33,147 nucleotides of DNA from a virus: UHGV virus genome UHGV-0236124. One strand, written 5' to 3'. The notes under the pieces are model-generated. The model searched no databases. It was not told the origin of the DNA and worked only from the letters and a program-made list of their open reading frames with translations. The stretch's first letter is position 1. Every line of letters begins with the position of its first letter. Of the stretch, positions 15,239-16,415 are shown one piece after another. Made by a program: the position numbers and the translations under genes.

Positions 15239-15454
15239 ATGAAATCCATGGATAAGTTAACAACGGGTGTCGCCTATGGCACCTCAGCAGGTAGTGCCGG
15301 GTACTGGTTTTTACAGTTGCTCGATAAAGTCACGCCCTCACAGTGGGCGGCAATAGGTGTGCTGGGTAGTCTGGTATTTGGCCTGCTGACGTACCTGACA
15401 AACCTTTATTTCAAGATTAAAGAAGATAAGCGCAAGGCTGCGAGAGGTGAATAA
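15239..15454 (+). CDS. class II holin / pinholin (phage 21 S-like) with dual-start motif
   Basis: [71 protein letters not shown] closely matches phage 21 S21 as I recall it; Met1 and Met4 dual start; two transmembrane segments. Confidence 0.85.
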
Positions 15455-15951
15455 TGCCTCCATCATTACGAAAAGCAGTTGCTGCTGCTATTGGTGGCGG
15501 AGCAATTGCTATAGCATCAGTGTTAATCACTGGCCCAAGTGGTGACGATGGCCTGGAAGGTGTCAGCTACATACCATACAAAGATATCGTTGGCGTATGG
15601 ACTGTATGTCACGGACACACCGGAAAAGACATCATGCTCGGTAAAACGTATACCGAAGCAGAATGCAAAGCCCTCCTGAATAAAGACCTTGCCACGGTTG
15701 CCAGACAAATTAACCCGTACATCAAAGTCGATATACCGGAAACAACGCGCGGCGCTCTTTACTCGTTCGTCTACAACGTGGGTGCTGGCAATTTCAGAAC
15801 ATCGACGCTTCTTCGCAAAATAAACCAGGGCGATATCAAAGGCGCATGTGACCAGCTACGTCGCTGGATATACGCTGGCGGTAAGCAATGGAAAGGCCTG
15901 ATGACTCGTCGTGAGATTGAGCGTGAAGTCTGTTTGTGGGGGCAACAATGA
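15454..15951 (+). CDS. SAR endolysin (phage 21 R-like lysozyme)
   Basis: N-terminal signal-anchor-release segment [20 protein letters not shown] followed by lysozyme domain; overlaps the holin stop. Confidence 0.85.
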
Positions 15952-16415
15952 GCAGAGTAACCGCGATTATCTCCGCTCTGGTTATCTGCATCATCGTCTG
16001 CCTGTCGTGGGCGGTCAATCATTACCGTGATAACGCCATCGCCTACAAAGAACAGCGAGATAAAAAAGTCAGTGAGCTGAAGCAGGCGACCGCCACCATT
16101 ACTGACATGCAGCAGCGCCAGCGTTCTGCTGATGCACTCGATGCTAAATACACGAAGGAGTTAGCTGATGCGAAAGCTGAAAATGATGCTCTTCGGCGCA
16201 AGCTTGATAATGGTGGTCGGGTGTTCGTCAAAGGAAAATGCCCTGTGCCATCCTCAGCCGAAACCTCCAGCGCCTCCGGCATGGGCAATGATGCCACCGT
16301 CGAACTCTCTCCAGTTGCTGGACGAAACGTTCTCGGTATCCGGGACGGAATAATCCGCGACCAAACAGCACTGAGAACGCTTCAGGAATACATCAGGACG
16401 CAATGCCTTCGATGA
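15948..16415 (+). CDS. Rz-like inner-membrane spanin
   Basis: ATGA overlap with the endolysin stop; N-terminal [18 protein letters not shown]; coiled-coil body; Rz1 embedded. Confidence 0.8.
16168..16353 (+). CDS. Rz1-like outer-membrane lipoprotein spanin, embedded in +1 frame of Rz
   Basis: AAGGAG 7 nt upstream of ATG; lipobox LIMVVGCSS; proline-rich mature part [16 protein letters not shown]. Confidence 0.8.

Follow-up and report, generated by a model that had tools for sequence, protein, structure and literature searches.

Among the described lysis systems, those closest to the one reported here belong to phage 21 and phage 434B, for which curated records annotate the same features and cite the primary papers; the phage 21 record (OL657228) lists the antiholin S21-71, the pinholin S21-68, a signal-arrest-release (SAR) endolysin, a spanin of the inner membrane (i-spanin) and one of the outer membrane (o-spanin). 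S21-68 is known to open depolarizing holes on the nanometre scale, through which a folded endolysin does not pass, and the SAR behaviour of the phage 21 endolysin R21, with a membrane-tethered and a released form, has been described in the same studies (PMC9636201, PMC9239132). Here we describe the lysis cassette found at positions 15239-16415 of a 33,147-nucleotide (nt) stretch of DNA, the virus genome UHGV-0236124 (hereafter the window, meaning the whole stretch that was analysed). As far as can be judged from its sequence, this cassette very probably encodes a pinholin, a SAR endolysin and an Rz-Rz1 spanin pair of the phage 21 type, carried by a lambdoid (mEp460/Ayreon-like) prophage.

A second point of reference is the S-R-Rz-Rz1 cassette of lambda, which shares with the window the logic of a dual-start holin/antiholin gene, an embedded Rz1 and the equivalent positions of the disulfide-forming cysteines (PMC6139136). 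The holins are of different kinds: lambda S105 is a class I, large-hole holin with three transmembrane domains (TMDs), whereas a pinholin with two TMDs is predicted in the window. The enzymes differ as well, lambda R being a soluble cytoplasmic transglycosylase and R of the window a predicted membrane-tethered lysozyme. A further relative is the essD-rrrD pair of the DLP12 prophage, whose RrrD (PDB 4ZPU) is identical to R of the window at 162 of 165 positions.

Organization of the cassette and relationship to phage 21

Four + strand genes, S, R, Rz and Rz1, were recognized within 15239-16415 by reading the sequence together with the list of open reading frames (ORFs). All four frames are intact, and they lie, to the base, where the initial annotation had placed them. 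The S stop codon and the R start codon overlap by one base (TAATG), and the R stop codon and the Rz start codon overlap in the sequence ATGA. The Pfam assignments of the four proteins are all far above the curated cut-offs, and their PHROGs labels read holin, endolysin and, twice, Rz-like spanin; the NCBIfam models gave no match for S or Rz1.

The initial annotation had described the cassette as phage-21-type and had proposed alignment with phage 21 as a check, naming a lack of similarity to S21/R21 as what would refute it; the similarity turned out to be high. In global alignments with the proteins of phage 21 (OL657228), 61 of 71 residues are identical in S (86%, against S21-71), 92 of 155 in Rz (59%) and 29 of 61 in Rz1 (47.5%); R is identical at 160 of 165 positions (97%). 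Phage 21 also has the same gene order, the same one-base and four-base start/stop overlaps, the same MKSM dual start, an identical SAR segment, nearly the same first ~83 amino acids of Rz, and an Rz1 that is read in the +1 frame and preceded by the same AAGGAG. It differs in carrying another allele of the 3' half of Rz and of almost all of Rz1, where DNA identity is ~52-62% after 16199, and in its flanks: tRNA genes lie upstream of the phage 21 cassette and a DNA methylase gene upstream of ours, and bor occupies the downstream position that is taken here by a small frame, orf50. Phage 434B (OL657227) compares in a similar way. Its S DNA is 93-100% identical to the window in 60-nt windows, and it differs as phage 21 does, in a diverged 3' half of Rz and in Rz1. 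The designation phage-21-type thus fits S and R and, in Rz, the first half; the rest of Rz, together with almost the whole of Rz1, represents a P22-like allele.

A dual-start pinholin gene

The S gene opens with ATG AAA TCC ATG (MKSM), the dual start that had been pointed out in the initial annotation, with Met1 at 15239 and Met4 at 15248. Starting at Met1, the long product (15239-15454, + strand) has 71 amino acids and, from its PF04971 match and its similarity to S21-71, is the predicted antiholin (anti-pinholin) form. Starting at Met4, the short product (15248-15454, + strand) has 68 amino acids and is a predicted class II pinholin, with TMD1 at about residues 8-28 and TMD2 at about residues 36-57. 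A Shine-Dalgarno region, GAGGTGGGGT, lies at 15228-15237 on the + strand and would serve both starts; its purine-rich part, GAGGTGGGG, spans 15228-15236. The curated 434B record marks the same bases as two ribosome-binding sites, assigned to S71 and S68 respectively, and translation of its S ORF gives the same 71 residues as in the window. In Pfam, S scores 121 bits against PF04971, 'Bacteriophage P21 holin S' (cut-off 26, E 2e-35), and the same protein, at 100% identity, occurs in phage records that include cdtI, ev243 and Kati.

The two hydrophobic segments were compared by composition only, as predicted TMDs. TMD1 (8-28) is weakly hydrophobic, with a mean Kyte-Doolittle (KD) value of 0.55 and Gly, Ala, Ser or Thr at 12 of 21 positions. 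TMD2 (36-57) is more hydrophobic (mean KD 1.44), and the Gly/Ser positions of helix packing are kept in it as G40, G43, S44 and G48. A net charge of +3 makes the C-terminal tail basic, and Lys2, which lies between the two Met codons, adds a positive charge to the N-terminus of the long product. The two-Met motif is kept in relatives down to 52% identity, found in Klebsiella, Pectobacterium and Stenotrophomonas phages, in various forms: MYQM in Stx2 II, MRM in Pectobacterium ZF40, MYRM in Klebsiella Kp4856-1 and MKM in Stenotrophomonas BUCT709. This recurrence in distant relatives supports the functional importance of the motif. An alternative GTG start of S at 15176, which would give a protein of 92 amino acids, was rejected: the extended frame crosses a terminator hairpin and is absent in the relatives.

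A SAR endolysin

R (15454-15951, + strand) encodes a GH24 lysozyme of 165 amino acids (PF00959, 154.7 bits). According to PMC9239132, SAR endolysins are recognized by the composition of the SAR segment and by the catalytic triad, and pinholin-dependent release is the definitive test. Both sequence features are found in R. Residues 8-27, which directly follow the basic pair R6-K7, include 13 Gly, Ala, Ser or Thr among 20, and the catalytic triad is present as E35-x8-D44-x5-T50. The predicted SAR segment comprises about codons 1-30 (15454-15543, + strand), in agreement with the N-terminal SAR segment proposed in the initial annotation, and these 30 residues are identical to those of R21. Over its full length R is identical at 161 of 165 positions to the protein in PDB 3HDE (full-length R21), and it also matches PDB 3HDF, the R21 form that does not contain the SAR segment.

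An embedded spanin pair

Rz (15948-16415, + strand) encodes a predicted i-spanin of 155 amino acids (PF03245, 100.9 bits; phrog_13 over its full length, 1-154 of 154), in which a TMD at about residues 4-24 (mean KD 2.41) is followed by a periplasmic domain. Rz1 (16168-16353, + strand) encodes a predicted o-spanin lipoprotein precursor of 61 amino acids (PF06085, 75.4 bits, E 2.8e-21; phrog_3198). It is enclosed completely by Rz, is read in the +1 frame, since (16168-15948) mod 3 = 1, and covers 0.47-0.87 of the length of Rz, close to the range reported for embedded spanins, which mostly start at 0.4-0.5 and end at 0.9-1 of the length (L) of the gene that contains them (PMC6139136). The AAGGAG Shine-Dalgarno sequence of Rz1 is at 16155-16160 on the + strand, 7 nt before its ATG. 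The Rz1 lipobox is VVGC, with Cys19 and a Ser at +2, which fits the consensus [LVI][ASTVI][GAS]C given in PMC6139136 and carries no inner-membrane retention signal at +2. Mature Rz1 has 43 amino acids, 8 of which are Pro (19%). The embedded frame is therefore as it had been described initially, with a lipobox, a proline-rich mature part and an AAGGAG of its own.

Cys98 and Cys153 of Rz align with the phage 21 Rz cysteines equivalent to lambda C99 and C152, and Cys27 of Rz1 aligns with Cys29 of phage 21 and lambda. The lambda cysteines at the aligned positions form intermolecular disulfides (PMC6139136), and by analogy the same bonds may form here.

The Rz1 stop codon is polymorphic. At 16351-16353 it reads TAA in the window, giving 61 amino acids, and TTA in phage Ayreon; a 68-residue form occurs in ST104. 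The change between TAA and TTA is silent in the Rz frame. The Rz1 gene is missing from the RefSeq (PGAP) annotation of a chromosomal copy in E. coli 5CRE51 that is 100% identical to the window (Rz at 18710-19177 of the compared stretch), and also from the Ayreon GenBank record (Rz at 3849-4316 of the compared stretch).

A mosaic junction inside Rz

The boundary between the two alleles falls inside the spanin genes. Compared with phage 21 and 434B, the DNA is 92-100% identical throughout R and at the beginning of Rz, 73-85% identical in 16019-16138 and 92% identical in 16139-16198, after which identity drops to ~52-62%. From about 16192 the sequence is that of a P22-like (Lederbergvirus) allele, as in ST104 gene 15 / orf44 and also in HK620 and mEp460, with which the window shares the 3' part of Rz and Rz1: over 16188-16367 the DNA matches ST104 gene 15 at 95-98% identity, and the Rz1 proteins of the window and ST104 agree at 60 of 61 positions. 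Unlike the window, Sf6, mEp043, Kapi1 and HF4s combine their spanins with a holin of greater length plus a separate ~158-residue endolysin; in the Sf6 and HF4s records these are labelled lambda-S-like and lambda-R-like, not pinholin and SAR endolysin.

Counted from the Rz1 ATG, the switch comes after about 25 nt. It borders on a 44-nt island (16152-16195) whose sequence does not vary among the window, phage 21, 434B and Ayreon. The island combines Rz coding sequence with the Rz1 Shine-Dalgarno sequence and the first nine Rz1 codons, and its invariance suggests that it may have provided a foothold for recombination. Rz and Rz1 are reported to interact via their C-terminal parts (PMC6139136). 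An exchange point just past the island would mean that these interacting parts were swapped as one unit. Further homology breaks were seen at ~15223 and ~16614, around the cassette.

Distribution and alternative readings

Several E. coli chromosomes carry the 1.3-kb cassette at 100% identity, among them that of strain 5CRE51, in a prophage adjoining tRNA-Thr/proA. A match was present in 5161 of 5426 complete E. coli genomes, and in 1185 of them it covered at least 80% of the query. Among phages, Ayreon shares the cassette at 99.8% identity, with three differences, one in the Rz1 stop codon and two in non-coding sequence, and all proteins are the same apart from that stop; identity to vB_EcoS-569R4 is 98.6%.

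This abundance in chromosomes raises the question of whether what we see is a relic, left in a defective prophage and comparable to essD-rrrD-rzpD of DLP12 in E. coli K-12. The host would then carry the cassette along passively, or would employ it not for phage release but for purposes such as envelope remodelling or biofilm formation. The identical chromosomal copies, which RefSeq names essD, rrrD and "lysis protein", would agree with this, as would the near-identity of R to RrrD of DLP12 and the presence of a match in almost all complete E. coli genomes. The four intact frames speak against it, as do the complete-looking lambdoid gene order, which runs from repressor through replication, Q, lysis and terminase to portal, capsid and tail genes, and the 99.8% identity to the cassette of Ayreon, a phage recorded with E. 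coli K12 as its host. We consider a relic unlikely; moreover, this alternative concerns the state of the prophage and not what the genes encode.

Some observations weigh against the reading of the cassette as a pinholin/SAR-endolysin/spanin set, or at least against parts of it. The RNA around the dual start (15205-15275) has a folding energy of -16.5 kcal/mol and a z-score of 0.01 against shuffled sequences (-1.0 for its phage 21 counterpart), showing no excess folding. As this energy does not go beyond that of the shuffled controls, a regulatory stem like the lambda sdi is not supported by the energy test. Gene order and a promoter resembling the consensus are the two grounds for proposing Q-dependent expression of the cassette. 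Last, an ORF of the size of Rz1 is no rarity: a +1 ATG ORF of at least 61 codons arose in 28% of synonymous shuffles of Rz, and in 13% when local codon usage was kept.

Together with the lack of an annotated Rz1 in RefSeq and in the Ayreon record, this last result could suggest that Rz1 is a chance open frame within Rz, spanin function residing in Rz without a partner or in a gene at another site. Because ORF length by itself is not unusual, the case for Rz1 rests on homology, the lipobox and the Shine-Dalgarno sequence, and here the evidence is strong: the PF06085 match, a canonical lipobox, an optimally spaced Shine-Dalgarno sequence and a proline-rich mature part. Moreover, the frame, the lipobox and a PPxPPAW motif persist in the 47%-identical allele of phage 21 and lambda, where Rz1 is proven (PMC6139136), and an embedded +1 lipoprotein ORF is also found in the distant ZF40 and BUCT709 cassettes. 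A chance frame is therefore highly improbable. It is just as hard to believe that S is a canonical large-hole holin and the N-terminus of R an ordinary cleaved signal peptide, with a timing that does not involve depolarization-triggered release: nothing specific favours this beyond the fact that topology and hole size are not legible in a sequence, whereas S belongs to the S21 family and has two hydrophobic segments, not three, and the N-terminus of R matches, residue for residue, that of R21, whose SAR behaviour is documented (PMC9239132, PMC9636201). No feature of the sequence counts against the identification of the proteins themselves as pinholin, SAR endolysin and spanins.

Transcription of the cassette and proposed lysis programme

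Gene order in the window is lambdoid: an S24-peptidase repressor and a CII-like protein are followed by replication genes, Q, a DNA methylase gene, the lysis genes and the genes for the small and large terminase subunits. Beyond the terminase lie further large + strand ORFs, in the region where an identical chromosomal copy is annotated with portal, capsid and tail genes. The Q antiterminator gene (PF03589, 178 bits) is at 12083-12835 on the + strand. Downstream of it, at 12867-12895, there is a promoter-like sequence, TTGCAT-17-TAAGAT, and two identical 24-nt terminator hairpins, AACCCGCCACTGAGCGGGTTTTTT, occur between Q and the methylase gene at 12942-12965 and 13619-13642, 677 nt apart; the chance expectation for such a repeated hairpin is 0 matches. 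The hairpin at 12942-12965 looks like the tR' terminator of a Q-dependent late promoter. In the gap between the methylase gene and S, a hairpin followed by a T-run at 15178-15194 (+ strand; -12.2 kcal/mol, z -1.7) resembles an intrinsic terminator and is annotated as a terminator in Ayreon. Another such hairpin and T-run lies 3' of the cassette at 16589-16608 (+ strand; -15.2 kcal/mol, z -3.0), and homology to PhiR70_1 stops just past its T-run. From this arrangement we infer that expression of the cassette would rely on Q-dependent readthrough, as it does elsewhere among lambdoid phages.

The lysis programme proposed below is taken from experimentally dissected homologues (PMC9636201, PMC9239132, PMC6139136). 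It is by analogy with these that the topology changes, the hole size, the disulfides and the membrane fusion are attributed to the present cassette, while its anatomy, motifs, homology and distribution could be observed directly. RNA polymerase modified by Q would start ~2.4 kb upstream and read through three intrinsic terminators into S-R-Rz/Rz1, and the TAATG and ATGA overlaps would couple the translation of S, R and Rz. From the two S starts, Met4 would yield the 68-residue pinholin and Met1 the 71-residue antiholin, both of which would accumulate in the inner membrane. Lys2 of the antiholin would keep the weakly hydrophobic TMD1 in the membrane and thereby delay triggering. In the meantime R would be exported by Sec and would stay inactive, tethered to the inner membrane by its Gly/Ala-rich N-terminal SAR helix.

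When the programmed moment is reached, the pinholin would withdraw its TMD1 from the bilayer and TMD2 would oligomerize into heptameric pinholes of ~2 nm, collapsing the proton-motive force. The SAR helix of R would then leave the membrane, allowing the enzyme to refold and cut the murein. Rz, anchored in the inner membrane, and Rz1, an outer-membrane lipoprotein, would be joined by their C-terminal regions and stabilized by intermolecular disulfides, and once the murein mesh is gone this complex would fuse the inner and outer membranes.

A small frame at the end of Rz

Immediately downstream, orf50 (16403-16555, + strand) is a frame of 50 codons that overlaps the final 13 nt of Rz. It is a homologue of Sf6 gene 65, matches phrog_11822 over its full length and would encode one hydrophobic N-terminal helix, and its status as a gene is uncertain. 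Pfam and NCBIfam gave no match for it. The frame was found in 44 phage records, and in all of the 40 listed it lies at or overlaps the end of the Rz gene, behind differing holin/endolysin pairs. It is common to Sf6 (gene 65), HK620, epsilon34, CUS-3 and mEp043, and in the phage records examined it always accompanies a P22-type 3' end of Rz. In the HF4s record the homologue is mislabelled 'Rz2 / o-spanin'. A gene of the same size and in the same place in Stenotrophomonas phage BUCT709 led us to consider that orf50 might be a DUF1378 protein, an identity that was dropped as BLASTP found no similarity.

When five alleles of orf50 were compared, about 5 non-synonymous changes and 1 synonymous change were counted (118:32 available sites), and no purifying selection was visible at these small numbers. 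This ~5:1 pattern suggests that orf50 may not be a protein under selection. It is accordingly doubtful, and in our judgement improbable, that orf50 is an unrecognized fifth component of the lysis cassette, modulating the action of spanins or holin as a membrane peptide with a single transmembrane pass. Alternatively, this conserved DNA may simply hitch-hike as part of the mosaic module, or may serve as a non-coding 3' element ahead of the terminator.

Neighbouring regions of the prophage

In the late transcription unit, S is immediately preceded by the gene for an N6/N4 DNA methyltransferase of 350 amino acids (14119-15171, + strand). Its Pfam match aligns residues 29-341 with a model of 221 positions, which implies a large insertion.

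A 21-nt direct repeat (19 of 21 positions identical) is found at 15191-15211 (GGCCTTTTTATTTCCATTACA) and 16604-16624 (GGGCTTTTTATTGCCATTACA), and represents the tails of the terminators that flank the cassette. The repeat was considered as a module boundary and rejected in this role: its upstream copy is absent in 434B, Kati and PhiR70_1, which have the same S behind another upstream module. From its absence in these relatives, the upstream copy would belong to the methylase terminator and not to the cassette.

Between the lysis terminators and the gene for the terminase small subunit (DUF1441, 17229-17768), a region of ~570 nt (16660-17228) holds no convincing ORF. Homology to Ayreon ends within this gap near 17047, and homology to mEp460 near 17084.

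In the early region, Rfam matches on the + strand identified isrK at 7519-7595 (59 bits) beside a C4 antisense RNA at 7620-7707 (82.8 bits), both inside an ORF (7159-7995) whose product has an Ash-family Pfam match. This arrangement resembles an immunity or antirepressor module of the P1/P7 c4-ant type. At the prophage end, an ORF at 1125-1697 (+ strand) encodes a SocA/Panacea antitoxin domain (PF13274, 67.9 bits) and is followed by an overlapping ORF of 139 amino acids that has no Pfam match; the two are possibly a toxin-antitoxin or defence pair.

Significance

As a lysis system, the cassette is already known and is an ordinary copy that brings nothing new: the system is present in most sequenced E. 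coli genomes, and the label "textbook" used in the initial annotation suits it. Its value lies mainly in correct annotation, which marks the window as a lambdoid prophage or phage with an intact pinholin/SAR-endolysin/spanin module. The embedded o-spanin gene Rz1 represents an annotation gap both in RefSeq (PGAP) and in the closest phage record. Finally, the junction inside Rz provides a clean example of lambdoid mosaicism, in which the C-terminal module of the spanins would have been exchanged whole.

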